NCBI GenBank assembly: GCA_008632985.1
Contig: QPGO01000008.1
Coordinates: 124,001 to 165,896 of the forward strand
Origin: Psammoneis japonica
Taxonomy: Eukaryota
Reading direction: 5' to 3'
DNA: 41,896 nucleotides
Part shown: positions 1,264 through 30,837 of the stretch, piece after piece
Layout: the number at the start of each line of letters is the position of its first letter
Position numbering within the stretch: position 1 is the first letter of the stretch
The notes under the pieces: generated by a model
What the model was told of the DNA's origin: nothing
Databases searched by the model: none
The model's input: only the letters and a program-made list of their open reading frames with translations
Made by a program: the position numbers and the translations under genes

Positions 1264-1539
1264 TGACAGAAAATGAAGGCAAATGGCAAGAATTCAAACA
1301 ATAACTCCTTACTGCTGTCTAAATAGCAGATGAGTCTCCGCTCAGAGACCGTTACAGGAGCCGAAAGACGTGTGAGTCGGTATAATCGGGCTACTGTTAT
1401 TATTCTTGTGAGCCTTGTGGCTCGAAAGCAAACTACATCGCGCGTGAACGCGCGGAACTAAAGCACACAAAACTGTGCACGGTAAACTAAACAGCGCGCG
1501 ATACTTCGCGCGCACCTAAATCCTGTTCAAATCCTGTCA
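1264..1539 (-). repeat. 5' LTR (276 bp)
   Basis: Begins TGACAG and ends CTGTCA (6-bp terminal inverted repeat). Its outer end coincides with the junction to an older decayed element. The second LTR is outside the window. Confidence 0.7.
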
Positions 1540-3560
1540 GTGTGCTTGCAACAGCAATGCTTTGGCTTCCAAATTTGGCCGCACTTGATTTTGAGTGGCT
1601 CACAACAGCTCCCAAGCTTTGGGTCATTTCTCCTTGGTGTTCTCAAGATTCTTGCTGAGAGCTTGTTCTTGCTGCTTCAACTCAGCTGCGTGATTCAACT
1701 GGAGCTCTCTTGCTTCAACAAGCCTTTGGTGTTGAATTGAATTTCCCTGATCAATCTCCTGAACGTCTGCCACAAGGTTCTCCCATGCTTTTTTTGTTGT
1801 CCCAAGAATGATGTGCAGTGATGCAAGAAGCACCCTGTCAAAATCAACCAGAGTTGGAGGTCGGTTGATCACTGATCCATTTGTCTCAGCAGCTTGCTTC
1901 TGCTTCTTCTTGGTGTTGTGCTTTTGGATGTTGTTGAGTTGTTGCTTTGCCTCAGCTGCCATTTGCAGCTTCATTCCCAAATTCATGTGTCCTTCAATCT
2001 GAGCTGCAAAGCTCTCAGTGAAATGTTGCAGAGAAAGCAGGGAAAGAATGCACTGCAACCCTGTGAACCAAGGGCGATGTTGAGAAATTGAACATTGCCA
2101 CCAAGAACTGTGTGGAGCTCACATGTTTCAAGACTGAGTTCCTCCATGTTTTTCACATTTGACTCTTTCTCAAAAGGTGACATCCAGTGCAGCATTGCAC
2201 GCTTGTTCTTTGTTGACAAATTGAGCAGTGTCTTGTTGTGTCTTCCATGCTGAAAGAGAGTGGCTTGCAAGCACACTCAGAACACACTTTCCCTGGCACC
2301 TTGTCTGTCCTTGCAGAACCTTTGTGCAACTTTTTTGCTTTCACAAATGTTTTCATCGTGGCAACATGGTGATGTGTCATTTGTTTTCATGTGCCCTTCA
2401 CCACTTTTTGGATTTGCATCCACTTGCTTCCATGCCCACCTGTGCTTGGACTCAATTTCACTGTGCCTTTCTTGCCCGACTGCTCCTCCAGAATTTTCAT
2501 CATTTTGTGTCCCATGTGCTTGAGCACTTTGACGTTGCCTGCACTTTTGAGGTCACTGGCATCAAATGGCTGGCAACACTCCTTTGCAGTGCTGAGGATT
2601 CCTTCCGCATCTTCTTGTGGATCTTGGTCACCAGCTGTGGCATCTGTTGTGGCACGAGGGGTGACAGTTGCAGCAGTTGCTTTGAGGGCAGTGGCGGGCA
2701 TTGCTGCAAATGAAGCACTGGCAGGAGCAGGAGCATTGGGAGCAGTGACGGGAGTTGGGGCAGTGGCAGGAGCAGCAGAGTCAGGAGTGCAACTCGCAAC
2801 ACCTGTCAGCTTGTCATCCTTGAGATGGGCCAGGGCAGGCATGGGCTGAGGGAAGGGCGCGCACAATTTCTTTTCCTCCATGACCAAGGTTTTGACTTCT
2901 CAAGCTTCCTTTGTGCAACCAGCTCTGTGAGTTGCATCTGTCAGCAAATTCATGAAGGCAAGATCTTCCTTCACAATGGGAGCACTTCCTGGTGTTTCTG
3001 CAGTGTCTCCACAATCAGAGAAGTTGTGTGCCAGTGACGCCGTCACACAGTGCACATTCCCAAGCGGGAGTCGACAACATGAGTTGAAAGGACACTTGTG
3101 CTTGTCAATTTTTGAGAGCCATGCCTTCTTGCACATCCACTCAAAGTTGACCACAGAAATGCCCAACTGCCAAAAGAATGTCTTCTCTCCTTCTTCTTGA
3201 CACTTGGTGTTGGAAGCCAGCCACCATCTTTTTGCCCAGAACAAATGCATGAAGCAGGTCTGGGTCTTGCGCACAACATGCCAGTGTGCATGCAGGTGAT
3301 TTTTGATGTCTTGTTCAGTCAATGTCTCCCTTTCACTCTGCAAGTGGCAAGTGCAGCAATGTTTCAGCACAACATGTTTTGGACACATTGGTCAACAATG
3401 AGGTCAAAGCAACACATTGTCAGTTTTGATGCAAGAACACAAGCAACAACATTTTTGCCAACAAACGGCGACTTGCATTTTTTGTTCAGTTGCTTTTGCA
3501 CATTTTTTGCACTTGGCCTGTTGGAGGCAGATCTGAAATTTCATCCCAAAAAAAGAAGAA
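1540..3560 (-). pseudogene. Decayed Transib/RAG1-like (CMC-type) DDE transposase, interrupted by the copia insertion
   Basis: ORFs 3388-2900, 2887-2387 and 2380-2153 are one frame broken by TGA. Downstream motifs GGNVQFLNIALGSQGCSAFFPCFLC (D....LG.....+PC..C) and LVDFDRVLLASLHIILG (LH..LG). Confidence 0.6.
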
Positions 3561-4149
3561 AGGAGGCATTTTTCAGTGCTGCCACAGTGGAGTCTGCATG
3601 GAGATGACGTCACAGTGCAAAACACCATTTCCATGCTGCGGTGTGTGCTCTGCAAGCACGTCGTGGGCTGGGGGGTTGGGCCGGGGGCAAGAGAGTGCAG
3701 GGGGGAGCTTGCAAGCAGGGGCAGAAGGGAGGGCCAGGTGCAGGAGAGGCTTCAAAGGGGGGGGGGGGGGGGGCAAGGGACACAAGAGAGGATGGAGGAG
3801 GAGGATCAAGTGGTCAGAGGGCAGCATTGCTGCAGTGTTTGAACACCTTGGGAAGTCACTGGGGCTGGTGTGAGGTGGCTCACACATGTGCAAGCAAGTC
3901 ACTTGTGCTTCTGGCAGTGGGGCTGGGTGAGCTCCATGATGAGGAAGGGGACAGCAGAGGCAGAGGCAGCAACAGAGTGGCACCCTGTGCTGCCTGCAGA
4001 TGCTGGGAGGTGGAGGAGGAGGGGGGCATGGCAAAATGGGTTGACACTCCCCCTTCCCCTTCCAACATGATGTTCGATGCCAGCACTGAAGTGCCTTCCT
4101 GCAACACCTCACCCAGTCTGGGTTAAAGTCAAAACACATGTCTGAAACC

Positions 4150-4860
4150 AGCAGGGGCAGGATGGAGAGAAGGCAGCACAGGAGCAGCAGAGGGAGCTCT
4201 TGGTTCATGCGCCACCCCAGGTGAGAGGAAAAGCAGTCAAGGTTGGTGCAGAAGGTTGTTGCTTTCTGAGCAAGGAAGGTGTCAAGGAAGGATGCAGCTT
4301 GGCAGAGGAGGGTGGCAGCACTGACTTGAGGCGGGTTGGGTGAGGGGCTGGCACCTGTGATGGATGCAAGGATGCAAGTTTGGGAGCAGCTCAGATGGAC
4401 ACTGTGTGGCCAGTTGATGGCAAAGCAATGCTGGCAGCAGAGGGAGTCTGGAACTTCTTGGTTGCTTGAGGACAATGCTGGGGACAAGAAGGGTGGAGAA
4501 ACAGGAAGGGGGCAATGAGCAGCCTTCAGAAAAACATTCAGGCTTGGGGAAGGACTGCCAAGAACTCACAGGGTTGTGTCGCCACAAGGCATTGGGGGCA
4601 TCACAGCACAAGATGAAGATGGGGAGGAGGCACCTGAGTCAGGGGGCAAGTGCTTCTCAGCGCATGTCCCAAGAGCATTCTCACCAAAAAAATTTTGAGG
4701 TCAAGGGTGGGGTCAACACGAGCAGGAACATCTTTGTTGAGGCATCACTTGACACTGGCAAGTGCAATGTGGACAAGGCAGTTGGGGCTGCCTTTGATGC
4801 CAGCACCAAATTGTTCATCAGGGATGAGGCATTGAGTGAGGGCAGAGGTGCTGTGGCACT
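4150..4860 (-). pseudogene. Decayed non-LTR retrotransposon reverse transcriptase fragment (CRE/Ambal-like)
   Basis: Manual translation QFGAGIKGSPNCLVHIALASVK*CLNKDVPARVDPTLDLK (about 4813-4695), then SWQSFPKPECFSEGCSLPP, corresponding to the RT G..QG.PLSP motif. The YxDD segment was not found. Confidence 0.6.
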
Positions 4861-5859
4861 TGGCTGAGCCGCATTGTCAAAAAAATGTTGGGAGCACACA
4901 CAGCACATTGTGTTGTCATGCACCCTTGCTTCATGTTTCCACATCACCATTTGGAGCACTGTGTCACACCCGCTCTCCATGATGAGTCTGCACATCATCA
5001 ACAGCTTGCCACTGTGCACACTTTGCACACCTGGGTTGCAACGCAGATGATGTGCCAGGGTCACACACAGGCAGTGAGTTCAGCCACAGTGTCCAAAAAA
5101 TGACATGACCCTCTCCAAGGCAGTCAATGCAAAACACACCAGAGGCGTGCCAATCACATGATGGTTGGTTGTGTTGCCCCATCAATGCCACCACAGCCTT
5201 GTGCCACCCAACCGATGTTTTGTCAAGCTCAACACAGAAGTGTGCCATGCCCCCATTGAAGTTGTTTCACTCAATTTTGTCCAAGAGTGAATGAGTGCCA
5301 AATTTTCACTTTGTCAGTCATCACCAACACACACACACACCCTTGAGCATCATGTGGTTGTGCGTTCTGCTCATTTCACCTCATGAGTTGCAACAATGTG
5401 GAAACACAGTGTGTGTCTCTTTTTGTTGCTTCCTTGCAGCTTCATTGTCTTTCTTGCAGCTGAGCTGCCACTTTGGCATCAGTTGCAATGAAAACTTTTG
5501 GGCATTTGCAAGAAATGCACTCATGCTCAAACTCTGCTTTTGCTCCTTGCTGCACAGGTTTTCAGCTCAAACAATGTGGCAGCACTGCTTGTTTGTGACT
5601 GCTCAGGATGTGGCTGAACTGCGGTGCTCTGAGATTCAAAACCAACGTGCAGGAGCCCAGCCAGGTTCTCATTTTTGTTGGGCATCATTTTTTGTGTTTT
5701 TCCAAGATTTTGAGATCAGGTGGCATGCACGTGCCCATTTTTGTGTGAACAATGAGATTCTTTTGAAAATGACCCGTGACACAAAACGCATGAATTGCTT
5801 TGGGATGTCCTCAGAATCTGCACCTTTTTGCACCAAAATTGTTGTCTTCTCAAAACTTG

Positions 5860-5963
5860 TGCAAAAAAGCACTTGACTGCTGCCAGATCAGGTGCATTTC
5901 TGCAAACAGCTGTGTTGTTCTAAAGTGCACCTGACCAGTTTGCAGTCAAGTCCATTTTTTGCA
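5860..5963. repeat. Imperfect inverted repeat / hairpin
   Basis: TGCAAAAAAGCACTTGACTGC..TCAGGTGCATTT pairs with AAAGTGCACCTGA..GCAGTCAAGTCCATTTTTTGCA. Confidence 0.75.
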
Positions 5964-6489
5964 GAATTGACAATTCAATGTTTTTCTTGGTGCAGATCCA
6001 CGCAGTTTCTGCACATTTGCCAACAACAACTCCACAGCTTGAAAGATTGCCATTGACGAAAATTTTGTGATGCATTCATTGCAATGGGGATGGCTGGCAT
6101 CACTCTGCAGAAATTTCTTTGTTGATTTTTTCTGCAGCTGCTGGCTGGCAGCATGACGGGGCAAAAAATTTGCGTTGCTGCCATGTGCTGGCAAGGGGTG
6201 GTGGGACAATGCCGCTGCAATTTTCCAGCTAAAAAAACAAACAAATCTGCAGTGCAACAACCAATGCACAAAATCACATGGCATTGCTCCTCCTCCTGCC
6301 ATGATGTGACCAACTCATTTGCAGGTGAAGCATGGCAAAATGAGCGCATTGCTGCACATGTTGGGCAACTGTTTGGATGTGCTCCATTGCAAAAGATGTG
6401 CAAACCTGCAATGTGATGTGTTCTTGGCTGCATGCTTGATTTGAACATTGTCAAAGTGTTGTTGTGTCCTGCCACATTTTGGCTCTTGC

Positions 6490-9137
6490 ACGCACGGAGC
6501 ATCAAACACATGAGCAACACAACCGTCAACCCTCCTTGGCTTGTCAAATTCTGGCAGTGCAATGTCACTCAGAGCCACCCAGTGACCCGACTGGAAAGGA
6601 CCTGCTGCGGTTTGAAAAGCTCACACTCCACATTCATCAACGGATGGTGTGGCCCCACGAGGTAAAACTCGAGAAGATGTCACAGTGTGAGAGCCACCAG
6701 AATCAAATGGTGCACTCATCACACAATTCAACTCATGACATTGGATTGATTTGGCAACCAGCAGCGCAGATGGGACCAGCGTGGCATGCGAAACTTGCAA
6801 ACCCATTGTGGGGAGAGGAGTGTTGTGTTCAAATGCATCTTGATTGAATGCACCCCCCTCTTCATTCATGCAATTTTCTGCAGCATCTTCAAATTCAACA
6901 GGCAACAATTCATCAGGATTTTCAAAACAATCAAAGGCAAAACTTTCAGGCACATTTTCAGGCATGGCACAATCATTTTCAACAAGTGCTTCACATGCAG
7001 GCAATTGAGATCATTCAGCTCCAGAGCACTGAGCTTCTTCTTCTCAGAACTGCCAAGAAAACTGCCCATCTGGCTGAAACCTCACCACACCTCCACAACG
7101 TGGAGGGCCTCATCCGACCATGTCTGAATGGTGCACATCACCACAAGGAGCTTCTCAAGCCTGGTTGTTGTTCACATGTTGTCTGCTTGAGCAGCACAAC
7201 CATCGGCCTGACCTTGACCACCACAGTTGTTGTCATCATTGCAACTGTGCTGGCCACCACCTTGGTTGCCATTGTTGTTCTGATTTCCATTGTTGTTGTT
7301 GTCACAATTGTTGCAACAGGTGCCATGACCTCCTTGGTTTTGGTTGCCATGACCACCAAAGTGTCCACCACCATCACGGCCAGGACCCTGGCCTCCTCAG
7401 AAGCGACCTCTGCCTCAACCTCCACTGCCACGACCACCACCTCAACCACCACAGATTTGAGGTCCACGACAGTCAGGGTCATTTGGATCATCACAGCACT
7501 GGCCCCATGTGTGTCTTCAATGATGCCACAGAACCGGGCATGGATCACTGGCCTTGGGTTGACCCTTGTTGGCCTTCTTGTCTCAGTTGCCTTTCTTGTC
7601 ACTGGAGTTCCCTCCATTGCTGTTGTTGGACTTGCATTTCTTGCTGTCTTGACCATCAGCAAACACTTTCTTGGTGCTCACATGCAGGCTTGAATGTCCG
7701 CCATGGAATCTGCAACAAGGCTCTTGCCCACACGAATTGGGGCTGCTGCCAGGTGAAGGGAAAGGTGCGGAAGACAATGTTTTTCTGCTCCTGCTCTGTG
7801 AGTTCAGGAACAGTTCCAGGCAAGCAGTTGGCACAACCAAATGAAGTTTCCGTGCGATCAACGTGAGTTTCAGATTCTGCCAAGTGAGGTTTTTTGCAAC
7901 AAGGCAAATGAATCTTCACGGCATGTCACGAGCTGTTGGCTTCACATGGTGTGAACAGCAGGCCGCAACAGCTTGATTAAACCGAGCCACCATCCTCTGA
8001 TTCTGTTGGATGCCCGCCATGATGTTCTGCCGTTTTGCCTCTGCAGCACCTTGCAGGCGATCCTCAAAAGCATCAAAGAGTTCCAGACGCTTTCCAGCTC
8101 TGGGTGGGACCTCGTGCTGCTGAACTGTGGCACAATTGTTTTTTGTCATCCGTTGCATGTTTCGCATGTGCATTTCTGCGTGTTCTGTTATAAAATCATG
8201 TTCCACACTGCCTGTTTTGCAAAGCCAAAGGCTTTCTGTTGTCCACATCATTTGTGACAACAAAAATGCGCTGGGCATGTTCTTTGATGTCTGAAGAACA
8301 CACCCGGGTGCACTGAAAAGAATGCACTTCAAGTGTGGGGGAGAAGATGCATTCGCAAAATTGCCTCTTTTTCTGTTGGCGATCATTCACACATCCATTG
8401 CTTGACAATTTTGCTGCGGAGCTCGCACGTGGACGGGCCCAATGTCACAAAAAGTCCCACCTGGGACTGGAGCCCGTCTCCATTCTGATGGCGCCACAGC
8501 CCAGCCGTCTTGCCACCTTCCAAAAACGGTCCTCCATGTGCAACAGCGATTCAACTCCATGTTCTCCTGTGAAAATGGGACACATTTTTGAGAGAGTTTG
8601 GTTCCATCATCAAAGGTTTGAGTGAGCTTCACTTTTTGCAATTCAGAGTCCACAAATTTGGTTTCACGCTCAATGCGCACTTTCTCCAAACCTTCTTGAT
8701 GCATGATGATGAACAACCTCAGCAATCAAAGAATCAACAATCCACAAAACAAGTGAAACAAGGTGTTCCCAATTGGTCCACACAAGAACAAGAACAATCA
8801 ACAGCCAAACAACAACAAATTCGAGTGTGGCAACACAAGCTTCAAGTTCAAACAAGCACTGCTCCAAATCGCCAATTTCACAAGTGCAGCTGGGCTGAGG
8901 TTCCGATTGACCTCCAATGAAATTTTCTGCACACGAGCACACAGACAACATTTCTCTCTTTTCAACAGCACTCTGCGCGTTGTCATGAAACAGATGACAC
9001 AATGAACAATGAGCAAGCCATGACAACGACTGCAGTTGCAGTGCAAGATCTGGCTTGAGATGACTTGACAAAACAGGTTGTGAGAGAACCAAGAAGGGAA
9101 CCGATCAGCGCAGTCGCTGATCAAAACTGACTTCTAA
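6490..9137 (-). mobile_element. Truncated Ty3/Gypsy LTR retrotransposon (gag plus aspartic protease), decayed
   Basis: gag from ATG 8704 (MHQEGLEKVRIERETKF...), LPGTVPELTEQEQKNIVFRTFP, CP...HTWGQC knuckle and RGG/N-rich tail. Protease FDSGGSHT at about 6700 and LPEFDK..VDGCVAHVFDAPC at about 6560-6495, after which homology stops. Confidence 0.75.
8086..8478. mobile_element. 393-bp MITE with about 25-bp imperfect TIRs and a 4-bp TSD, inserted in the Gypsy gag
   Basis: TCCA|GACGCTTTCCAGCTCTGGGTGGGAC ... GTCCCACCTGGGACTGGAGCCCGTC|TCCA. Removing it restores the gag frame (GAIRM-ELFDAFEDRLQG). Confidence 0.8.
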
Positions 9138-9170
9138 CAGCCTCTTGAATGTCCAATGCATCAGTTTTAA

Positions 9171-9660
9171 GGTGGTGCGGGTGCAAAAGTGGGCCAGATT
9201 CTACGCACGCAGAGCTTAGCATGTTTTCTACACAAATCGCCAAAGTCGGCTCGCCAACTTGATTCCTCTCCAGGACGATGGAAACTGGGACATTTCACAT
9301 GACAAAGTGTTTTGACCACTTGATTGCACTCCCCTCGACTTGCTCATGAAGAGAAGTTACAAGTTTCCACAGGTTTCTTGTTTTGCACAGCTCTTTGAAA
9401 CTCGAACGTCTTGATTTTGGCACCTTTCTGATTAGATTCGTTGCACATCCTCAGAAACCTGTGAAAACTTGTAACTTCTCTCCCCAAACAAGTCAAGGAG
9501 AGTGCAGTTGAGCAGTCAAAACACTTTGTCATGTGAAATGTCCAAGTTTCCATCGTCCGGGAGAGGGTTCAAGTTGGCGAGCCGACTTTGGCGATTTGTG
9601 TGGAAAACATGCTAAGCTCTGCGTGCGCAGAATCTGGCCCACTTTTGCACCCGCACCACC
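9171..9660. mobile_element. 490-bp MITE with about 210-bp TIRs, Kolobok-like (TTAA target, GG..CC termini)
   Basis: 9171-~9378 is the reverse complement of ~9453-9660. Flanks are TTAA (9167-9170) and TTGA (9661-9664). Confidence 0.9.
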
Positions 9661-11172
9661 TTGAGTGGGCGTGCCAGAGTTTTCGGCCTGTTCACTTTCT
9701 ACGTGGCCTGGTGCAACCCAAATCTGTGTAGATTCAGCACATTTCGCCCTGCAGAACAGTTTTTGGGAGTGTTTTCTGGCTCGCGGCTCAAAATGACACG
9801 CAAAACAACACGGACAATGGCGTTTCACCGATTTGAAAAATGCGATCGTCTCTGAGGTTGGAACCTGTGTGCTCTCAACAGAATCTGGTGCATCACATCA
9901 TAAGACACGAGACAAGCTTGAGAATGCCCAGGTTCACATGGGTGGATCATGGTGTAATTTTGACCTGAAGATTGGTGTTGATGCCGCCGCTTTTGTTGCA
10001 TCAACACGCAACTCATGCATCGTCATTCATGCTGTGCATTTCGTTGAGCACTCATGCGTTCAAATTCTTTCAACTTACATGTGTGTTGTCTTTCCTCATT
10101 GTTGTTTTGTTCTGCAGGGTCTCCCTTGCCATGAGCCATCCCTGAGAGAGAAATGCTTGCTTTGAATGTCACTTCTGCCTTGCAACGGCCACGGCAGTCT
10201 GACGACAAGTCCACGTCACAGACACAGCATCAGGATGACTCAACGACAAACAAAGAAGCTTGGGTCTGTGGTGTCTGAAGATGTTCAAGCTCTCAACAGC
10301 TCAGATTTGTCGTCGAGCAATTTTGCCGCGCATTTGACGTGCATCCAGAAGGTGATGCGGAGTTTTGTTCGACAGAGAAACGCACCGCGGCAATTGTGAA
10401 GGGGTGGATTGTTTCTTTGTTCTACAAGGCAGTTTACAAACTGGAAATGTGTGACTCACTTGCCTGCATTGTCAGCCAATGCAATGAATTTTGAGGGTGA
10501 AAGCTGGTGCACCGTGCACAAACAGCGAACCAAGCCTCAAAAGCACAGCAGGCCAGAAGCTGGAGAGTTTGCGCCAACAGGAAGAACTGGCTTTGCTGTT
10601 TGTCATGGGACAGTAGATTTTATTTCATTGGGGTGACAAGTCTCCATTGCTGTTCTAGAGTGACTGGCATTGGTTTGGCCGTTGCAGCCTTCATGCATGC
10701 CCGCCTCTTGACAATCTGTTTTGTTCTGAGATTGTGCAATGAAAAAGCCTTTGTTTGCAACATTCCATCACAAGAGAGAGCTTATGAGCTTTACTTGGCC
10801 CTTTGAAGTGATCAGGCAAGTGAAAGAGGAGCCAACAGAAAGACACTAACGACGACAACGAACGACGCCATTTTGATGCACTGTCGTCTGGTGGTACAGT
10901 GTCGTTGATGGAGTGCCGTGCTTTCTGTTTTGTACTGCTTCTGTGTAGGAATGTACGTGCTTGGCAGAGCGATCGATCGAGGGCACACTCGGTCATAGAG
11001 TACATGTGCCTATCTCATTCAAGATCTTGCATCTTCTCTGGAGTTTCAAGGGGCATATATAATTCCTAAGCTTCTGGTCAATTATAGTGACCCCAATGAC
11101 TTCGGAGGGGTCACATTTTGGAGGGAAAGCGCAGGCGACATCTTGACTCGATTTTAACGATCAAGTCACAAC

Positions 11173-14859: not shown

Positions 14860-14971
14860 AACTTCTCGGGAAATCAATTGAAATGCCATCTGATTGACGG
14901 TGTTTTGATTCACATGGTGAAGGCCAATGCCGTCAATCAGATAGCATTTCAATTCAGGTTCCCGAAAAGTT
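14860..14971. repeat. About 41-bp imperfect inverted repeat with a 29-nt spacer at the left edge of a transposon block
   Basis: AACTTCTCGGGAAATCAATTGAAATGCCATCTGATTGACGG / CCGTCAATCAGATAGCATTTCAATTCAGGTTCCCGAAAAGTT. Confidence 0.85.
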
Positions 14972-15074
14972 ATTAGCTCTAATCACTCTCTCGTGTGACA
15001 TTGTGTACATTTCTACTCGATTTTGTGTTTTTCCTTGTGTGAAATGTCAATTGTGACCCACGCGACATTTTCAA

Positions 15075-18000
15075 ATGATTCCTGTTGCTCCGAATGAGAA
15101 TCTTGTGTCGACACACCACGCGTTTTTGCCGTGCTTTGAGTTTTTTCGTCTCCCGCCAACAGAGATGATGTTGCACTCATCAAGGCGGTGTCTTGGTGCC
15201 TCAGTGAAATCGTCAAATGATGCGGGGCAATGCTCTTCACCCGCCAACGAAACTGCTGTTGCATTTGTTGATGATTCTGCTGAAAAATGGGACCATGACA
15301 GCTGCCAGAGAAACTTGGTCAGTTTCTTTTGTTGTTGCCGTGATGCACCGGCGTGGTGGCATGAAGTCATTTTGCGACCCAATTCCAAGTCTGACTCAGG
15401 TGTCTCCCATGTCTTTCAAGTTTGCGCTTGGCTTGTCTGACAGCTCCTGTGAAAAGCTTTTGACGAACAGTGGTTTGTTGAAGGTGAGCGCGGCTTTGAC
15501 CAAGGAAATTGACAGAAAAGCATGGGGCACATTCAAGGTGTTATTTGACGTTGACATTGAACTCAACAGGGTCTCCTTGAGACAGAGAGACCATCAAGTG
15601 TGGGTCATCAGGGTCGGATCTTTTGTTCCTTGGGCCGAAAAATGTCCTGTGTGTCAGGCCAGGTCGACACGCAAATGGAAAATTTGCAAAAGGCTTCACG
15701 GCGAAGCTTCAGGCCAACAAAGTGTGCAGCAGGAAGCTGCAACAGAAACAACTCGGGATTGCCAAGGTGCAAGAGGAGCTTGCTTGCACCCACATTGTGC
15801 TGAATGAAAATGAGCCCACTCATGAGAAACAAAAGACTGTTGATGACAAGGCAGCCTCTGGGTCCACGGCACCTGATGAATCGCCAACCAGCACATTGTG
15901 TGACATCACTCAATGACAAACAAACATTGACAACAGCATTGACAATGAGTTGGAACCTTGTGCTGGATGGAAAATGTCAGGAAAAGACAACACCATTGTT
16001 TCAGTGTCTGTGAAAGAATGGGTGCAGAGCAGCTCCATGCCCCATGCTGTTGCAGTCGGAGACACCACACCAATTGCCTCTTGCTTTCATTCGATTGAAG
16101 GTGCCAAGGATTTGTGTCTCTTGGTTGATTTGGACAATGGACACAACCCACGGCCAAAATCATGCAGCTGCTGGAAGCCTGAGTCCGTCAAATTGCAGCT
16201 GTGCACCCCCTTCTCTGATGCGCGATTGACTGTGTCTCGCATTTGGCAACAATGCAAGAGGGCCATGTCAAAGGAAGTGTCTTCAAAAAAGTGTCTCAAA
16301 CCTGATCACTTGGACATTGTCCCAAGTGAGGTTGCACATGGCAGCATTCAGCAGCTGTGGACCAACCTCAGCAACTCTAAGAAATGGGAGCATCGGCTGC
16401 GAGAACGAATGGTGGTGATGAAGAATTGGTCACTCAAATGTGACGGGCAGCTTGATGGCACTCTCCCTGCCCAAAGAAAAGATGCGTCAATCCTGAAGAC
16501 CATCGTGCATCATGCAGAGCCAGTTGCAGCAGAAATGTGTGGCAAAGACTCCGCTGAACACCATGCCTTCACCATGCACTTGCAGTTCTTAAATGGAGAG
16601 CTCACGGATTCAAAGGGAAACCATGTTAGAACAATGCAGTGCTCCACCCTGATCAATTTCCATGCACTTGCTGCACTTTGTGATTGCAGAAAGGATGTTC
16701 ACAACACTTTGTCAAAGGTGTCGTGCCTTCCAGATTGATGGAATGTTGAACGTTTTGCCAAGGACAAGTTTGGAAATGAACGAGACAATGGCGTGCTGAA
16801 TGGGAACGTTGATGCTCTTGCTGTGGAGATGCAAAAGGCAGGCTGTGCCAAAGCTGCAATTGCTTTTGACAGCATGACCATGTGGAAGGGAAGGATTCTT
16901 GACAACCAAGAAGATTGCAAAGATGAGCTCTCACAGGTGCAATGATGCCGGAGCAGCTTTCCGTTGCAAAGTTGGAGTTTGAAGCACATGTCTGGAATCT
17001 AGCTGATGGAGTCAAAGGCAGCAATTTGGATGAAACTGTGTCATTGTTAAAGCTCAAGAACTCAGAACATTCTGTTGAGTCTGAAAGTTGAGGCGAAAGT
17101 CATGACAGCATGCTGCAATGCAAAGACCTTGACAGCTGCAGATGTGTGTGCCCAGTTGGATGAATCGAACATGGCACTGAAGCATCACGGTTTGTCCGCT
17201 GCTTTGGAGGTGTCCGATTCAGCAGAAGCAAATGATGCAGCAGCAAACACAAGGTGTGAAGCATCCGCCAAAGAAATGCTCCCACGGGATCTTTTGAAAG
17301 CACACAGCTTGGATGGGAACTTCCTCATCACACACAAGGATGTGGTCATGAAAGATTGCGTGGTGTGCACAAATGACATGCCACATGTTTTGAAACAAAT
17401 GGGGAGTGCAATGGACTCATGAGAACTGGCTTGTGGCTGACTTCAACTTCATCCAATGTCAGTGCCTGTTTTGGGAGATGTGCACAGCAGTCTTGCTGGT
17501 GGCAGATTTGGTCTGCAGGTGCACAAGAAGTGGCCCCCCACATGATTTTCAAAAGCAGAGCAACCGTGACAAAATGAAAGTGAAAAGAGCAGCAAAAATG
17601 CCAAGTGGCAGCATGGTCAAATGCATTGACAAAGTGCGCAACTGAGCTGAAATGGAATTGGCAGGATTGTCAGCAAGAATGGCAGAGGAGAGGAAGGCAT
17701 TCTGCGGACCCATCTGCAGCCATGTCTTCACCATGAATTGTTGGTTTGATGCTGGCAACTCTTGTGACACAAAAGGCAAGCACAATTTCTTGGTTTGTGT
17801 GACTCGGGCCAATGCAAGAAGCACTCAAGATGTGTTCTTAGAGTTGCTTGTCACACGTGAAGATTGGATGTGAAACTTGACAAACAACAAGGGAGAGTTC
17901 GACAAAGAGAGATTCACACCCATGGAGCTGATGGCCAGCATGCAAAGGGTGTTTTGTGGCTTTGCAGCTCTTGTCCAAAAGATTGTTGTGGAAGAGAATG

Positions 18001-18230
18001 GGGTGCTTCTCTTGCGTGACTTAAACCAAGACATTTGTGAGCACCATTTTGCTCACACACAAGCTTCTTGCAGTTGGCACAACAATCCCGACCAATCCGG
18101 TGCCATCTTTTCTGATTTTGCATCTACAGCCAAACAAGTTTGTGCAATGTCTGACCACACCAATGTGTCTAAAAGTGCAAGGGAGCACTTCAATTGCAAG
18201 TTGTCAGCACAAGCGCAGTTCTGGTTGCTG
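15075..18230 (+). pseudogene. Decayed P-element/THAP9-like transposase
   Basis: Ordered motifs IAFDSM (~16860), SDSAEAN (~17215), NDMPHVLK (~17375), DKMKVKRAAK (~17570) and RDLNQDICEHHF (~18015-18050) match the P-type FDEM / D...N / D.PH..K / KMKV..A / LNQD..E..F pattern. Broken by TGA stops and frameshifts. Confidence 0.75.
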
Positions 18231-18420
18231 CGCTGCATTGTTTGCTCCTGCACACGTTCGTCGTTCGGACGATTTTTGATGTGAAAGATCAAGCTGTCCA
18301 ACCCCGGTGGCAATGATGCTCTCTCCTTGCAACAATGCATTTAGCTCCATTTTGGCTGTGTTGCTGTTGCTTTCTCCTGGACAAATGATTTTGACCAGCT
18401 GCATCTTTCGGACGACAATT

Positions 18421-19710
18421 TCACAAAATCTGAAGCACATCCCACCCTTTGAGTCTGCGGCACCACAGCAGAACAAAGTCATCCAACCCCAACAGCAACA
18501 CCGCTCTCTCTTCAGTGTTGAGTCTGGGTGGAGAGCAGCACTCAAAATGACCACACACATGAATGCTGTTGTTGACGACCATTTCAATCTTTGAGAGCAA
18601 TCGAGCTTTGTGCTGAGGTGCTTGAGCAGAGTTGAAGTTGGTCATCTGTGGGTCACACACCAAGGCCACAAACTCACAGCATTTGTTGTTGGAACATTGC
18701 AGCGCTGCTCCTTTTACATGATCTCTTTCCTCAACAAGGTGCAAATCATGTGCTGCCTCATCCTCGGCTGCTTCACTGCTGACGGCATTGTGGTTGACAA
18801 ACTTGTGCCACGCACTCGACTCAAATTTCCGAGCTGCAGTTTTTGACAACTTGTGGGCATGCACCCTCATCTTTGACAACCCCCAACCTGCAACACAAGC
18901 TGCAAGACTGGTGTCCTTTTCTTCTTCTTGGATTTTCGAGACAGCGTCCTTTGTCAGATGATCCGTCATTGGGGCTTCATTGGCTCCCCACAGCTTCTTT
19001 TCCCACACCCCTTGCAGTTTCTGATGAAAGTCACAAATCATTGCATTGCTGGCTGGCCCAGGTGCTGTCCCAGAGAAGCATTGGATGCAGTTCAAAAAGT
19101 GCCCATGTTGCTCCATCTGTGTGAAGTGCTGCATGCCCAGGATTTTCTTGTCAATCTTGGAAGGAGTGCTCCCTTCAAGGCACAATGCCAGAGCATTGTT
19201 GAACTCGGTGATTTCATCAGTTGCATGGTCTCTGGCAATTTTGTCATGTGTTGGCAGCTCTTCAAAGGATTTGCACTCATCACTGCCAACAAAAACATTT
19301 TGTGTTGTCCAGTCGGCGGCGAATGTGTCAATGGCATCATCTGAAACTTCTGGCTTTTTTTCTCTGCATCCAACCTCGCATCAAACATCTCGAGCAACTC
19401 TGCTTTTTTACACTCCAAGGCTGGAGGAGGATCATGGATGCCTTTTGACTTCCTAAATGACAACCAGCATTGAGCTGCATGACTTTGGTTGCTTTTGGGC
19501 AAACCCAGCTGGCGCAAATGCTCATCAAACAGAGTGTCCTTTCCCTTTCTGGTCTCCAATGTCCAGTGTTGACACAGGTTGAAAAGAGACTTGCAAGTCC
19601 ATCCCTGAGGTGCTTGTGATGCTTGTCACTTCCTTCACCCTGATGAATCACCTGTGACTGCTGCCTCCTTTCTTGAAACTCCAGCAATTGGGTCGTGCCA
19701 CGGCCCAATC
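18421..19710 (-). pseudogene. Decayed ORF of unknown function, convergent with the P-like transposase
   Basis: Overlapping protein-like ORFs 19559-19092 and 19185-18421 linked by an apparent frameshift; same TpA-free composition. Confidence 0.45.
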
Positions 19711-20350
19711 TTTCTTCGCCAAATGAATCATCCTGGGCATGGCAGTGTCAGCTGCTGACATCATTGTGAGTGGCAAATGACTCTGGATCAACAACACTTG
19801 AATCGACAAACAACAGGGCAGCGTGGTGTTTTTGTTTGTGCAATCTTATTGCTGGTCGAGGGGAAGTTGCAATCTTGTTGCTGGTCGAGGGGAAATGCCT
19901 CGAGCACGACACTGTGCGTGCCTTTTTTTGAAGTCTGTGCGTCACACACGCGTGATCACAGTACCGGTACAGCACAATCGCCAACGAAGTCTGTCCGTGC
20001 CTCACCTGGTCCGGAGGAATGCACCATTGCTTTTTGCCTCGCGCTCGAACCATTTTCGATTTGACATTGCGTGTGTCGGAGGGAATTTGGCCAATTTCGA
20101 AATTTCAAATAGGACTACAGTACTGTATAATAATTGCGGTCATTCACGAATTATTCTGCATGACCAGACATTTCCGACAATCGCAAAGCAAAATGACTAT
20201 GTCCAATGAATCCTTGCTCACACAACATTTAGGCCCAAGACTTCATGATGATTCGCATCGTTTAGCGGTCCATTGGTTTACGCAGTCCTCAAGCGTTTTA
20301 CATCTTTTTCCAGATATAGTGACTCGTCGTAACAGAGAAAAAGCGTATCC

Positions 20351-23300
20351 ATGAATTCAGCTTTTTCAAGGCCAAAATGGATGGCCTTGGCGTTCGGCAT
20401 ACCTCTCTTTATATCTCAAGTGGCATTCTGCCAAGGAGCAGCAGGGAAAGCGTCGCTAAAGTCCCTTCTTAAAAATAGCCACCAGAAAGAATGGGCACAA
20501 AAACATGCTGGTAGTGAAGAAATACTGAGGATCGTCGTTGACGAAAAGATGGATCTACCGCAAGATCTATCATTGTTCGTCAAGTATAAGAATCGCCGCG
20601 GCATCTCCGTCGTGAAGAAGTTATCACGCAAATACAAGAAGCTACCACGGCAACGTGTGGTATCTATCAAGGGAACTGACAAAGCTACTTTAGAGACTCT
20701 GTTGGACGATCCCAACATTGATTTTGTGGAAGCAAATCATAAGATTCACGCTCTTTTGCCGGCGACGCTTTCCAAATACAAGGCTCGTGATCTTCAGGAG
20801 CAAATTGAGTACGGATTCAAAATGGTACAAGCAGACCAAATGTGGGATATTCCGAGGAACTCTCCTCAAACTGAAAATATGACCATCTGTATAATTGACA
20901 GTGGCATGGCTCTCGGACACCCTGATCTCCCCTCTGAAGGCGTGACGGGAACAAACACAGGGATTGGTGATTGGAAGATTGATCCGTATGGACATGGCAC
21001 GCATTGCGTTGGAACAATCGCTGCTTTTGGCAACAACAACATAGGTGTGAAAGGAATTTTGCAGAACACGACTAAATTCAATCTACACATTGCCCGAGTA
21101 TTGAATAAAAGAGGAGAAGGGTCTGAATTCCTGTTACTGAAAGGCCTCGAAAGTTGTCTTTCTGCGGGTGCAAAGGTCATTAGCATGAGTGTGGGAGGAT
21201 CGTCATTCAGCGAAACGTCTCAAAAAGCCTTTAGAAAAGCATATGACGCTGGCGCGCTACTTGTAGCCGCATCTGGAAATACAGGAAATGCAGCATTCGC
21301 ATACCCTGCATCGTTTCCTTCGGTCATGTCTGTTGCGGCGGTCGGACGGGAAGAAGCCGTTGCGGGCTTTTCCCAATACAATGATCAAGTAGAGGTTGCT
21401 GCTCCTGGAGTCGATATCGTATCCACCGTCCCCGAGAATGCAAGCGGAAAATATGGCTATGATTTATTGAGTGGTGCGTGTTATGTGAGCTTAAGAATTT
21501 TCGTCCCCTCTTTGTCTAACTAATCATTTCTTTTCATATTTTACTTGCAGGCACAAGCATGGCAACGCCCTTTGTTGCAGGCATTTCAGCATTGTTATGG
21601 TCGTACTTCCCACAATGCACCAACACGGAAATTCGCAACGCCATTGCAAGAACAGCCAAGGATAGAGGTGAGGAGGGCTGCGACCAAGAACTTGGATACG
21701 GGATAGTGCAAGCGAAAGACGCGTACGACTTGCTATTGCGGGAAGGGTGTCTCGCTGCAAGAGACACTAAAACGAAATTATCAGATGGAGCACTAGGTGG
21801 TTGTATGCAAGACCCTCTCTACACTCCACCACCAACCCAAGCCCCTACGGAGTTTCTCTGTGAGCAGCAAATCTTTATGCTTAACTTGACCACGGACGAG
21901 TGGGGAGCAGAAACATCGTGGGACTTAATCAGTTCAACGAAGAATGTTGTTGAATCCGGTGGAAACTATCACAGTTCAAGAAACTATGTCATACGCCTAT
22001 GCTTGCCAATGGATGAATATACATTTACAATCCGAGATTCAGAAAATGATGGAATCTGTTGTGTCTATGGTAACGGGGGCTACTCGGTCTACTTTGACGG
22101 AGTATTGCAAGAAGCCGGTGGATCATTTTCAGGGTCAAAACAAGTGACGTTTGGCAGCAAGCAGATTGCACCAGTTTCGTCCCCGCCAGTGAGCGCCATA
22201 CCCCCAACGACTTCATCTCCTACAGAATCTGCAAGACGACCGCCGACGGAGCCCTGTCTCGACGATGAAATTTGGGTCTTCACAACAAAGAAGGGGGTCA
22301 AGAAGCCTTGTAGATACTTGCAAACAAAGACAGCCACACGATGCAAACTAGTTGGCACCGACAGGCAAGGACAGCCAGCGACGGGCCTCGTTGCTTGTCC
22401 TGTTTCCTGTGGAGTTTGTGAAGAAAGTCATCAGGAAGGTGATCGCCCGGTTTCTATCCCTCCCGCACAACAGCAAATGCCACCAACATCAAAAATAGCG
22501 ACACCGTTGCCCACCATGCCGCCATCCTCGGCTCCAACGCATTCGCTGACAACATCTTCATCAGCGGGACCAACAAAGCTGCCCACTACAGTTCCCACCT
22601 CTCATCCAACGCCATTTCCGTCACGTTTTCCAACAAAGGTGCCGACTCTGTCTCCAACCAAAGCAATTACATCATCTCCTTCGTTAAAGCCTACGACGTT
22701 ACCTACAGCACAGCCCACCACAACACCAACCCTTGATCCAACACCAATCCCTACCAATTTGCCCACTAAGATGCCAACTAAAATGCCAACTAAGGCCCCT
22801 ACAAAAGCACCAACATCATATCCGACGTCTAGGCCAACAGCGGTGCCTACCAAGCCACCATCCGCTTCTTCGACTAAAGTGCCCACGGAGCCCCCGACAA
22901 GCATAATAACTGCTTTTCCAACTGCTCGGCTAACGCAGAGACCCACCCTTCCATCGTGTAGAGATCAATACGGGGACGACATTGTTATGTGCCACGAGAG
23001 CGAGTCAGAATGTAGATTTTTTGTCGATCTGGATGGGATGAGCTGCAGTGACTTTTGCGAGGGCAAAGGGGGCAGTTGTTTGGCCGCTGTCGACAATGAT
23101 TCAGGCAAAACTTGTCGAGGCGATGATATTCAATCTTGCCATGACGCCATGCTTTCACTAATCTGCACGTGCTCTCGTGGCGAGGAGCCACCGTCTTTTA
23201 AAAACTTAGATCCAACGCCATGTACGGGTCAATACGGTGAAGAAATCGTTGTTTGCCATGAGAGCAATTCTGAATGTACATTCCTTGCCATATTGGAAGG

Positions 23301-25191
23301 TAAAAGTTGCGATGACTATTGTGAGTCTCGAGGAGGAAAATGCACTTCGGCAAAAGATAACGTCGGAGACACCTGTACGAGCGACGGAAGGAGTTCCTGC
23401 AGTGAACGCTTGAACACAAATATATGTACATGCTCACTGCAGCCAGAACCTACGCCGTGTAGCGACCAATACGGTGACGACATTGTTATTTGCCATGAGA
23501 GTGAATCAGTATGTCGATTTTTCGTCGATCTGGATGGTCTCAGCTGCAGCGACTTTTGCGAACGCGAAGGTGGCATTTGTTTCGCAGCTGTCGACAATGA
23601 GTCGGGAGAGACCTGCAGGGGCGATAAAACCCAATCTTGTCGGGATGAGATGCTGTCACTAATCTGTACGTGCTCTCTAGGAGAAACCCCACAGTCGCTG
23701 CAAAGGTCTGAACCTACGCCTTGTACCGACAAGTACGGTGAAGATATCCTTGTTTGCCAGGAGAGCAGTTTCGAATGCACGTTCTTCGCCACATTGAAAG
23801 GTAAAAGTTGCGATGACTACTGCGAGTCGCAAGGCGGAGTGTGTACTTCGGCCAAAGATAACGTCGGTTACTCCTGTAGTAGCGATGGTTGGAGTTTATG
23901 CAGTGCGCGGTTGGAAACAAATATATGCACGTGCTCTCTAGAAGAAGCCCCACAGTCGCTTCCAAAGTCAGAACCTACGCCTTGTTCTGACCAGTACGGT
24001 GAAGATATCCTTGTTTGTCAGGAGAGCGAGTTAGAGTGCAGATTTTATGCGGAGCTGGGTGGGATCAGCTGCAGCGACTTCTGTGAGCGCAAGGGCGGCG
24101 TTTGTGTGGCGGCTGTCGACAATGAGTTGGGAGAAACCTGCAGAGGCTATGCAACCCAATCTTGTCATGATGAAATGCTGTCAGTAATCTGCACGTGCTC
24201 TCTAGGAGAAACCCCACAGTCGCTGCAAAGGTCTGAACCTACGCCTTGTACCGACAAGTACGGTGAAGATATCCTTGTTTGCCAGGAGAGCAGTTTCGAA
24301 TGCACGTTCTTCGCCACATTGAAAGGTAAAAGTTGCGATGACTACTGCGAGTCGCAAGGCGGAGTGTGTACTTCGGCCAAAGATAACGTCGGTTACTCCT
24401 GTAGTAGCGATGGTTGGAGTTTATGCAGTGCGCGGTTGGAAACAAATATATGCACGTGCTCTCTAGAAGAAGCCCCACAGTCGCTTCCAAAGTCAGAACC
24501 TACGCCTTGTTCTGACCAGTACGGTGAAGATATCCTTGTTTGCCAGGAGAGCGAGTTAGAGTGCAGATTTTATGCGGAGCTGGGTGGGATCAGCTGCAGC
24601 GACTTCTGTGAGCGCAAGGGCGGCGTTTGTGTGGCGGCTGTCGACAATGAGTTGGGAGAAACCTGCAGAGGCTATGCAACCCAATCTTGTCATGATGAAA
24701 TGCTGTCAGTAATCTGCACGTGCTCTCTAGGAGAAACCCCACAGTCGCTGCAAAGGTCTGAACCTACGCCTTGTACCGACAAGTACGGTGAAGATATCCT
24801 TGTTTGCCAGGAGAGCAGTTTCGAATGCACGTTCTTCGCCACATTGAAAGGTAAAAGTTGCGATGACTACTGCGAGTCGCAAGGCGGAGTGTGTACTTCG
24901 GCCAAAGATAACGTCGGTTACTCCTGTAGTAGCGATGGTTGGAGTTCATGCAGTGCGCGGTTGGAAACAAATATATGCACGTGTTCAATGGGAACTAATC
25001 AACAAAGCCCATCCGAGGCATGTCAAGATGACCCCAGTTGGAGCTACTATCGATCGGGAGTCAAGAAAGATTGTTCTACTCTCGCATCCTCGTTAACGTC
25101 GTGTTCCAAGACCTACGGTACCGGTGTTTCAAAAAAGTGGACGACTGCATCGATTTCTTGTCCGAGAACGTGCTTCACATGCCAAGGATGA
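20351..25191 (+). CDS. Secreted subtilisin-like (S8) serine protease with C-terminal accessory domains, PT stalk and eight 10-Cys modules; join(20351..21473,21551..25191), about 1587 aa
   Basis: Signal peptide and prodomain. Catalytic triad IIDSG, HGTHCVGTI, and LSG|TSMATP formed across the intron; AASGN oxyanion motif. Confidence 0.93.
21474..21550 (+). other. Spliceosomal intron (77 bp)
   Basis: G|GTGCGT...CTAAC...TTGCAG|GC; splicing creates the catalytic GTSMA motif. Confidence 0.92.
23660..24985 (+). repeat. Near-identical 525-bp coding tandem repeat (about 2.5 copies)
   Basis: TGCTCTCTAGGAGAAACCCC recurs at 23671, 24196 and 24721; identical antisense ORFs are offset by 525. Confidence 0.95.
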
Positions 25192-30673: not shown

Positions 30674-30837
30674 AAGCCGTGCGTGGTCACAATATATGTC
30701 GGACTTGCATAATTTGGGATCTGTGACAAACTTTGTAACGTATATGTTCTTTTCTAAAACGTACCGCTGTGTTTCGCTTTGCTGTGATGTTTAATAGTAC
30801 GGTAGGTCCAAAATTGCCTATTTTTGCTGAGTGAAGC

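Follow-up and report, generated by a model that had tools for sequence, protein, structure and literature searches.

A multi-copy inverted-repeat element in a TpA-depleted tract as a probable record of TpA-directed hypermutation

TpA-specific A:T-to-G:C hypermutation of DNA has been reported once before, in a 2026 preprint whose available part concerns two integrated viral regions and only suggests that transposons are also reached. The locus analyzed here raises the question whether transposons are targets of such a process, which the element family that it carries could show. A multi-copy element whose arms and flanking duplication (TSD) were initially identical holds a built-in polarized record of mutation, and all its copies together could give the per-site strike probability, the sequence context, the strand choice and the timing without experiment. 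Furthermore, three features bear on the mechanism, namely TA-free tracts of kilobase length, the loss of CpG along with TpA and the survival of TA mostly after T. They also matter for annotation, since edited genes are deprived of tyrosine codons and of two stop codons out of three. The present analysis of the window (the whole stretch of 41,896 nt) indicates that the observation made in a first-pass annotation is real, largely as it was read, and is a new instance of the just-described TpA hypermutation. The explanation that we consider probable is a multi-copy TIR element combined with a TpA-directed A:T-to-G:C hypermutation that hit its right TSD and its right outer arm.

Structure, copies and classification of the element

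Outside-in ungapped comparison of the arms delimits an inverted-repeat element of 490 bp (9171-9660), with arms of about 208 nt and a loop of 74 nt; a repeat search gives arms of 210 nt each (9169-9378 and 9453-9662), 91% complementary and spaced by 74 nt. On its left side, the tetranucleotide TTAA (9167-9170, read directly), a putative TSD with an intact TpA, holds one of just 15 TA dinucleotides found in 8001-10000. It is followed, on the forward strand, by a left outer arm of 92 nt (9171-9262) that starts with GG and contains three TA and six CpG, and by a left inner arm of 116 nt (9263-9378) that is more diverged from its partner, both delimited by the arm comparison. Beyond the 74-nt loop (9379-9452; repeat search and fold) lie the right inner arm (9453-9568; repeat search and arm comparison), the right outer arm (9569-9660; arm comparison), which ends with CC, and the right flanking tetranucleotide TTGA (9661-9664, read directly). 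The whole element is predicted to fold as a hairpin (RNA fold of -364.8 kcal/mol, z = -35). Short, nearly entirely made of its arms and loop, devoid of any transposase gene and bounded by terminal inverted repeats, it has these features in common with MITEs.

The first-pass annotation had proposed this MITE reading. In the window, no second copy was detected by blastn with a word size of 7, all matches being those of the element itself and of its arms. Contigs of a public DNA run (X1, which has 78% of the sampled words and, with two further runs, comes from the same sample, no RNA run being listed) were also compared over 1,098 nt around the element. This comparison retrieved 843 matching contig pieces, showing that the element is multi-copy, as well as internally deleted relatives, which upholds the MITE reading for its multi-copy inverted-repeat part. 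An alternative letter at one place is carried by up to 31 distinct contigs over the 1,098 nt and by up to 27 inside the element. Altogether, 229 places vary among copies, 192 by transition and 37 by transversion. The summed contig depth peaks in the left and right outer arms, and some shorter relatives retain the outer arms only (joints 9198>9585, 9200>9566 and 9228>9545). None of the 11 joints listed corresponds to a contig spanning an empty site. Among the alignments listed (nine of 172 loose ends), that of another copy starts only at 9169, so that this copy lacks an intact TTAA in its flank.

The first-pass annotation had also qualified the element as Kolobok-type, an assignment that remains putative since it draws only on TTAA and on the GG...CC termini. 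The two flanks, TTAA and TTGA, match at three of four bases, and AA/TT may just as well belong to the inverted repeats as their ends. A 2-bp TA duplication (9662-9663) also fits, the extra T...A match favoring TTAA just 4:1 according to our own estimate. A Tc1/mariner-like, TA-duplicating reading thus fits nearly as well as Kolobok, and an A-to-G change at 9663 follows under this reading too. The ends of piggyBac elements are usually CC...GG, and the GG...CC ends of the element would speak against this superfamily. According to the available parts of two publications, Kolobok elements target TTAA and have 5'-RR...YY-3' termini (PMC9587614, PMC6004289), from which piggyBac termini differ (PMC9587614). 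The element does have such termini (GG at 9171-9172, CC at 9659-9660), and it resembles Kolobok elements and T2-type MITEs by its TTAA/TTGA flanks, its GG start and its CC end. However, Kolobok T2 MITEs of Xenopus carry a terminal AGGRR motif, in the available text, whereas the element begins with GGTGG, and its arms (about 208 nt) are unusually long. No transposase family was detected in the 11 long ORFs of the window or in 63 ORFs of its depleted tracts (one weak match to DUF7481 only). Exact and degenerate patterns of the terminal repeats gave no match in public metagenome contigs and viral contigs, and a scan of 8000-11000 against Rfam gave no family.

Differences between the arms and between the flanks

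Over the 212 compared positions (four of TSD and 208 of arm), the two sides differ at 20, by 16 transitions and four transversions. The outer 92 nt of the arms are 98% identical: only two positions are unlike (9203 and 9229), both at a TA of the left arm that faces CA at 9628-9629 or TG at 9601-9602 in the right arm. These are the CTACGC/CTGCGC (9203/9628) and TTCTAC/TTCCAC (9229/9602) pairs reported in the first-pass annotation, which had also correctly read the flanks as TTAA (left) and TTGA (right) and had described the CpGs of the outer arms as mostly intact (six of six pairs are). In the inner arm, 17 of the 116 positions are unlike the partner; the differences include three CA/TG swaps, one CG/TG (9336), four transversions and six other transitions. 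Two of the reciprocal swaps (9317-9318 and 9321-9322) were already known from the first reading and the third, at 9345-9346, was not listed there. Aligning the arms and tabulating the contexts of their mismatches, one part of the check that it had put forward, recovered all the details that it had listed.

When the arms are taken in full, TA-versus-TG/CA differences number three, which equals the chance expectation for 16 random transitions (mean of 3.0, P = 0.61 for at least three, 40,000 trials). The TA-class signal is carried by three sites, all among the outermost 96 positions. In these 96 positions, i.e., the TSD and the outer arm, all three differences oppose TA to TG/CA (P = 0.009-0.014, considering transitions only), and three of the 16 TA bases are changed compared to none of the 176 other bases (Fisher p = 5e-4). 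The occurrence of at least three CA/TG swaps is also improbable under 16 randomly placed transitions (P = 0.0004, 40,000 trials). Differences that do not affect YpR dinucleotides number 10 in the 116-nt inner arm versus none in the 92-nt outer arm (p = 0.003), and the inner-arm divergence is mostly older than the outer-arm differences. The claim that arms and TSD record the mutation directly probably holds for the outer arms and the TSD, whose differences lie exclusively at TpA, but not for most inner-arm differences, which are older and of mixed type.

According to the explanation favored here, the segment 9171-9660 is one copy of a multi-copy non-autonomous TIR transposon, a hairpin with 208-nt arms, inserted at a TTAA (or at least a TA) site in a tract stripped of nearly all TpA and of much CpG. 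The A of TpA would be changed to G, so that one strand would show TA>TG and the other TA>CA. Assuming that the duplication was identical at insertion, the TTGA at 9661-9664 probably descends from TTAA through an A-to-G change that later affected 9663 (TpA to TpG). Like the two outer-arm differences, it would have arisen since the last time that the TSD and the arms were identical, with three strikes on the right-hand copy and none on the left-hand one. Both arm sites were presumably TA in the family ancestor, the changes having occurred at this locus after insertion. As for the CA/TG swaps of the inner arms, each of them could derive from one ancestral self-complementary YpR dinucleotide struck in both arms.

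Comparison of the copies informs on the state of other sites in the family. Among the 40 of 229 variable places that were listed, 13 of the 16 transition places located inside the element interconvert TA/CG with CA/TG (P = 0.0035, baseline of 0.45). At four of these 40 places, the window has CA and other copies have TA: 9210 (78% of the depth), 9345 (62%), 9446 (58%) and 9444 (47%), TA being the majority state at the first three. The site 9345-9346 is one of the swap sites, and the ancestor of the swap sites is more likely TA than CG.

It is nevertheless possible, if on balance doubtful, that the same process struck only the TSD at this locus and that the two outer-arm differences were inherited from the progenitor as arm- or subfamily-specific polymorphisms. 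Since non-YpR differences are confined to the inner arms, much of the arm divergence predates the last identity of the outer arms. Both versions of the arm are well covered, with a depth of 6,358 at 9200-9236 and of 4,220-5,922 at 9570-9643, and relatives shortened to their outer arms exist. Moreover, the positions 9203, 9229, 9602 and 9628 fall outside the 40 of 229 places listed (share of at least 0.46; apparent ranking), which suggests that both states are common among copies. However, both states would also become common if a given TpA were struck repeatedly across many copies, and contig pieces were assigned to the arm that they resemble more, which makes their assignment circular at 9203/9628 and 9229/9602. 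That 2 x 92 nt contain no ordinary difference is compatible with a recently shared origin of the arms and equally with selection on the termini.

The depleted surroundings and the direction of change

The element lies in a tract (1501-10750, defined by 500-nt windows with a TA observed/expected ratio, o/e, <0.25) that is depleted in TpA, poor in CpG and rich in TG/CA. Its TA-free gaps extend over 1517-4124, 4124-5921, 6663-7978 and 8191-9135, the longest reaching 2,607 nt; there is no TA in 2001-4000 and only six in the 3,167 nt of 6000-9166 (o/e of 0.03). In the whole window, the o/e is 0.37 for TA and 1.43 for TG/CA. TA o/e values below 0.25 concern 20,250 of the 41,896 nt, about half of the window, and TG/CA reaches 1.5-2.1 there, so that the window does contain the TpA-poor, CpA/TpG-rich clusters that characterize TpA hypermutation. 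CpG depletion tracks that of TpA (r = 0.88), with CpG o/e of 0.14-0.43 and TA o/e of 0-0.1 in the tracts where depletion is strongest. Added together, the o/e values of the four YpR dinucleotides stay at about 3.8-4.1, as expected if changes interconvert members of the YpR set. TA is denser in the element (seven in 490 nt) than in its left flank (six in 3,167 nt; p = 6e-4), the comparison with its right flank (seven in 836 nt) giving p = 0.40. The remaining TA dinucleotides are mostly preceded by T.

Neutral decay, combining transition-biased mutation with deamination of methylated CpG, would make the TA-versus-TG/CA differences coincidental and directionless. The chance-level count over the whole arms agrees with it, as do the predominance of transitions among copies (192 places versus 37) and the CpG-class variation at five of the 16 transition places listed inside the element. 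Furthermore, among the places listed, CG is the state of most copies at 9123, 9379, 9412, 9827 and 9892 whereas the window shows CA/TG, and double CpG decay would yield CA/TG swaps. However, the outer arms have kept their six CpG pairs while three of eight TA dinucleotides were changed, and therefore CpG decay was not the faster process in this copy. Near the element, TA is nearly gone (o/e of 0.03-0.04) while CpG is merely halved (0.37-0.53), and TA-free stretches of 2.6 kb are beyond ordinary decay. Among the places listed, the swap at 9345-9346 reads as TA (T at 9345 in 62% of the depth), with neither a common variant at 9346 nor a common CG form. Neutral decay is thus an unlikely explanation of the whole pattern. 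Nevertheless, since CpG is depleted together with TpA and is not dealt with in the available part of the preprint on TpA hypermutation, a second process was also active and could explain some of the swaps.

The element by itself cannot polarize the differences between its arms. The direction of change was read in another depleted tract of the window, in an aminotransferase-like ORF (39901-41487, forward strand) whose homologues (E-values down to 6e-139, best identity of 49%) have uninformative names, one being "hypothetical protein". At the three Tyr positions that are conserved in the homologues, this ORF encodes Cys (TGT) or His (CAT). Changes thus affect three of three Tyr columns compared to 21 of 160 other conserved columns (Fisher p = 0.003), and of the 24 changes seen in conserved columns, seven amount to one TA>TG/CA step each. 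The Tyr content of the ORFs of TA-free tracts is 0%. Like the three differences of the outer arm and TSD, all three Tyr replacements are A>G or T>C changes on TpA. Protein comparison thus confirms the TA to TG/CA direction within the window, independently of the element.

The reverse direction, in which TG/CA would be ancestral and TTGA the duplicated target, TA having been derived from CpA through RIP-like C-to-T mutation, is very improbable. The TG form of the 9203 site is present in one diverged relative. However, a RIP-like process enriches TpA, whereas TpA o/e is 0-0.1 and TG/CA o/e 1.5-2.1 here, and conserved Tyr became Cys or His, not vice versa; a RIP-like C-to-T process was dropped because of this opposite composition. 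Furthermore, mutation-accumulation data of Bigelowiella natans show TA>TG/CA in the available text of the preprint (10.64898/2026.01.13.699255), and both Kolobok and piggyBac duplicate TTAA according to the part of the publication available (PMC9587614).

The co-location of near-complete TA and CG losses in discrete tracts could also be ascribed to miscalls or assembly errors at modified bases that would convert TA and CG into TG/CA. Modification-dependent base-calling errors occur. Such an artefact is as improbable as the reverse direction: the X1 contigs, possibly derived from the source data of the window itself, match it exactly over 8867-9065 (199 nt, no other letter), 165 contig pieces are at least 99% alike, copies differ from one another at such sites within one data set, and the same signature appears in Illumina data of B. 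natans in the available text (10.64898/2026.01.13.699255).

Under the preferred reading, i.e., TpA-directed hypermutation of a multi-copy element, an adenine deaminase acting on DNA may be the agent, here and in B. natans, for which the available text proposes but does not show such an enzyme (10.64898/2026.01.13.699255). A modified base, 5-hydroxymethyluracil at TpA as in dinoflagellates, was considered and dropped, the accessible part of the Breviolum paper reporting no sequence preference. More speculatively, and rather improbably in our opinion, TpA editing could be a defense against transposons and viruses that erases TTAA, is coupled to a mark whose cost is CpG and is guided by double-stranded RNA from hairpins. 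If so, the erasure of TTAA would remove both the insertion target and the flanks of TTAA-dependent transposons, edited copies (TTAA/TTGA) would be stranded and edited tracts would resist re-invasion, while the near-perfect 208-bp hairpin could supply the double-stranded RNA directing the system towards this family.

Comparison with known mutation systems

The closest known system is that of B. natans, whose likeness to the window concerns the mutation signature only. As far as the available text goes, 230 of 231 mutations found in two integrated viral regions of mutation-accumulation lines are A>G or T>C changes on TpA, the genome contains 124 clusters where TpA is depleted while CpA and TpG are enriched, and low-TpA CDS show an enrichment of transposon Pfams (10.64898/2026.01.13.699255). 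In both cases, only TpA is struck, giving TpG/CpA by A:T-to-G:C changes, in foreign or transposon-like DNA. However, the target is a single-copy viral insertion in B. natans and a multi-copy short DNA transposon with its flanking duplication here. Depletion also differs: Rho is 0.45 in the NCLDV region of B. natans, according to the same partial text, versus a TA o/e of 0-0.04 over kilobases here. Finally, CpG is co-depleted in the window whereas it is mentioned nowhere in the available part of the preprint (10.64898/2026.01.13.699255).

Like fungal RIP, the process proposed here is a dinucleotide-specific transition hypermutation that would degrade repeated or foreign DNA in place. However, RIP is known to proceed by C-to-T changes, mostly at CpA, with a gain of TpA, as the available text of the preprint also states (10.64898/2026.01.13.699255), whereas A-to-G changes at TpA and a loss of TpA are found here; the excess of TpA and the deficit of CpA/TpG that mark RIP are absent from the window. 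When methylated CpG decays in silenced transposons, CG is likewise converted into TG/CA and the changes are also co-located with repeats, but such decay leaves both the loss of TpA and the preserved CpGs of the outer arms unexplained.

A last parallel, also drawn in the available part of the B. natans preprint (10.64898/2026.01.13.699255), concerns the hyper-editing by ADAR in animals, which shares the A-to-G change, a preference for a 5' U/T and repeat-derived hairpins as targets, the element folding here into an almost perfectly paired hairpin (about 208 bp). However, ADAR alters RNA and not the genome, whereas it is DNA that is changed here, in a DNA transposon that has no RNA copy step.

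Arms of the inverted repeat and their flanks

The element is an inverted repeat whose arms of 210 nt (9169-9378 and 9453-9662) are 91% complementary and separated by a spacer of 74 nt. Its RNA fold is a single long hairpin (-364.8 kcal/mol versus a shuffle mean of -139.5; z = -35), and none of the Rfam families matched in 8000-11000. A second, small inverted repeat is found at 14876-14954 (arms of 38 nt, 82% complementary, spacer of 3 nt). In an ungapped reading from the outside in, the left side shows TTAA (9167-9170) followed by GGTGG, and the reverse complement of the right side shows TCAA followed by letters identical to the left ones. The right flank is therefore TTGA (9661-9664) and the element extends from 9171 to 9660.

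The arms differ at 20 of 212 positions (16 transitions and four transversions): one difference in the flanking tetranucleotide, two in the outer arms (92 nt) and 17 in the inner arms (116 nt). The first-pass annotation had already reported CTACGC versus CTGCGC, TTCTAC versus TTCCAC, a TTAA/TTGA duplication, reciprocal swaps in the inner arms and mostly intact CpGs in the outer arms. All these observations were recovered, at 9203/9628 and 9229/9602 for the first two and as CA/TG swaps at 9317-18 and 9321-22 for the inner arms, with six of six CpG pairs unchanged; a third CA/TG swap is located at 9345-46.

Their value as a signal depends on the part of the arms considered. Over the whole arms, 16 random transitions give a mean of 3.0 differences opposing TA to TG/CA (probability of at least three, 0.61), so that these differences are at chance level. 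They are a signal in the outer 96 positions, where the only three differences all oppose TA to TG/CA (P = 0.009-0.014) and where bases changed in 3/16 cases within TA versus 0/176 elsewhere (p = 5e-4), with no CpG change. Outer arms and putative flanking duplication thus differ at TpA only. Outside YpR, the inner arms differ at 10 of 116 nt and the outer arms at none of 92 nt (p = 0.003), and therefore much of the inner-arm divergence predates the last identity of the outer arms; this older divergence was probably inherited from a progenitor. Overall, the inner arms diverged mostly earlier, and in part only by changes of the TpA kind. The three swaps (P = 0.0004 under random transitions) suggest that a hypermutable, self-complementary YpR dinucleotide was struck in both arms. 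As judged from the sequence, they are more likely derived from TA than from CG, since the surrounding tract (1501-10750) has lost TA almost completely (o/e 0.04) and CpG by half (0.53), and since the outer arms have lost three of eight TA dinucleotides versus none of 12 CpGs.

According to two publications (PMC9587614; PMC6004289), Kolobok transposons duplicate TTAA and, unlike piggyBac, have 5′-RR...YY-3′ termini; the present element has GG...CC ends and TTAA/TTGA flanks. A 2-bp TA duplication of the Tc1/mariner type fits almost as well, and either duplication implies an A-to-G change preceded by T at 9663. No transposase was found in the window, and the terminal repeat had no match in public contig collections.

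Relatives of the element in sequencing data

No second copy is present in the window. Run X1, a public DNA sequencing run that is possibly the source of the assembly, contains 78% of the words sampled from 8700-10100, and when its contigs were compared with 8867-9964, 843 pieces matched at 80% likeness. Inside the element, a single place can show an alternative letter in as many as 27 distinct contigs. In three contigs, the outer left arm is joined straight to the outer right arm (9198 to 9585, 9200 to 9566 and 9228 to 9545); these are shorter relatives of the element. Summed depth, which is not copy number, is several-fold higher in the outer than in the inner arms. Both flanks (9015-9166 and 9661-9870) are repeats as well; their boundaries lie near the element ends and their summed contig depth reaches up to 23,611. 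The right-hand repeat family starts at 9661-9664, directly at the element end, a position suggestive of insertions nested in a single site; an empty site is not bridged by any of the 11 listed joints. These variants, shorter relatives and repeated flanks make the element a member of a heterogeneous multi-copy family, and it is a genuine multi-copy transposon nested among other repeats.

Variation was considered at the best 40 of 229 variable places, each with an alternative letter that reaches a share of 0.46 or more in one run or another, and apparently ranked by share; 9168, 9203, 9229, 9602, 9628 and 9663 are not among these 40. The element contains 21 of them (16 transitions and five transversions). 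Six transitions exchange TA and CA/TG, five exchange CG and CA/TG, two form a linked CA/TG swap (9370-71) and three are of other kinds; 13 of the 16 are at YpR, compared to a baseline of 0.45 (P = 0.0035). Bearing in mind that pieces go to whichever arm they resemble, other copies have TA where the window has CA in 78% (9210), 62% (9345), 58% (9446) and 47% (9444) of the contig depth, and TG or CA where the window has TA in 47% (9359 and 9613). At the swap site 9345-46, most of the depth thus has T at the first position, and the second position (9346) lacks any listed common variant; we read this as TA in most copies, as the opposite resolution of an ancestral TA requires. By contrast, the TG form of the 9203 site is carried by one diverged relative, which counts against the first-pass reading. 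Two boundary pieces offer slight indications on the flanks of other copies: the piece of one copy aligns as far as 9662 and stops before 9663, the behaviour expected of an intact TA at this point, and a piece of another aligns only from 9169, hence without an intact TTAA.

TpA depletion and direction of change in the window

Over the whole window, o/e is 0.37 for TA, 1.43 for TG and CA and 0.68 for CG. TA depletion is patchy, with zero, two and three occurrences in 2001-4000, 4001-6000 and 6001-8000, where TG/CA reach 1.5-2.1 and CG 0.14-0.29, versus 0.6-0.85 for TA and 0.84-0.99 for CG in the gene-dense 20-36 kb. In 500-nt windows, TA o/e is below 0.25 over 20,250 of 41,896 nt. TA is absent or almost absent from 1517-7978, 15014-19847, 37130-38417 and 40001-41750, with TA-to-TA gaps of 2,607 (the longest), 1,797, 1,315 and 1,287 nt, CpG at 0.14-0.43 and TG/CA at 1.5-2.1. 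TA and CG o/e are correlated (r = 0.88, 41 one-kb bins), and the o/e values of the four YpR dinucleotides add up to about 3.8-4.1 in depleted and gene-dense regions alike, as predicted if TA and CG are converted into TG/CA. The element, within the 1501-10750 tract, retains seven TA in 490 nt, a higher density than that of its left flank (six in 3,167 nt, p = 6e-4) but not of its right flank (seven in 836 nt, p = 0.40).

For the 106 surviving TAs of depleted tracts, the preceding base, counted on both strands, is T in 41% versus 20% elsewhere and A in 12% versus 25%, the top contexts being TTTA, TCTA and TGTA; the process may have a neighbour preference, sparing TTA and favouring ATA. Its products are asymmetric between strands in 2001-6000, with a + strand CA o/e of 2.09-2.14 versus 1.51-1.66 for TG; both are equal in 6001-8000 (1.88 and 1.87).

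The direction of change is given by an aminotransferase class-III-like ORF (39901-41487) lying in a depleted tract and open across 528 codons. Its homologues have at most 49% identity (E = 6e-139) and its Pfam match is weak (E = 1.4e-6, under the gathering score). In an alignment with 14 of its 39 detected homologues, it differs at 24 of 163 conserved columns (residue common to at least 70% of homologues). All three conserved Tyr are changed, to Cys (TGT, twice) or His (CAT), versus 21 of the 160 other columns (p = 0.003). Among the 24 changes, seven amount to one TA>TG or TA>CA step and two to CpG decay. In addition, ORFs of TA-free tracts contain 0% Tyr and 5-6% His. In this window, TA is therefore ancestral and TG/CA the product, as had been proposed. 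We regard this ORF as a gene that has probably been edited, is decaying or derives from foreign DNA.

Beyond 11 kb, almost all of the long ORFs lie on the + strand. A subtilase domain is split between two overlapping frames (Peptidase_S8 positions 3-221 in 20333-21523 and 237-288 in 21520-25191), which indicates a frameshift or a short intron. Two very long ORFs in 27446-35724 (1,075 and 1,526 aa) consist of a repeated Cys/His-rich unit (about 70 aa, 14-18 copies) in which the motifs C..CG.RTH and VHYG.C.KC are conserved, and match no Pfam family.

Taken together, the first-pass interpretation is supported in part. The element is a multi-copy transposon, the differences of its outer arms and putative duplication are confined to TpA, and the TA to TG/CA direction holds for the window; TA as ancestral state of the two outer-arm sites, TTAA duplications around other copies and a Kolobok affiliation are putative. 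The inner arms, being mostly older in their divergence, fit this interpretation only partly.

Comparison with Bigelowiella natans

A full-text literature search on TpA-related hypermutation returned one relevant paper, a preprint on Bigelowiella natans (bioRxiv, April 2026, 10.64898/2026.01.13.699255). In this preprint, two viral regions integrated in the genome show 231 new mutations, of which 230 are A>G or T>C; these GC-biased mutations are placed on TpA, and the rate is about 1000 times the background. The genome also contains 124 clusters depleted in TpA and enriched in CpA and TpG, its low-TpA CDS are enriched in transposon-type Pfams, and an ADAT2-like deaminase is proposed (10.64898/2026.01.13.699255). 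In its text, neither "CpG" nor "MITE" occurs, and the loss of CpG together with TpA seen in the window is thus unmentioned there. The TA to TG/CA direction found in the window matches this just-described process of B. natans.
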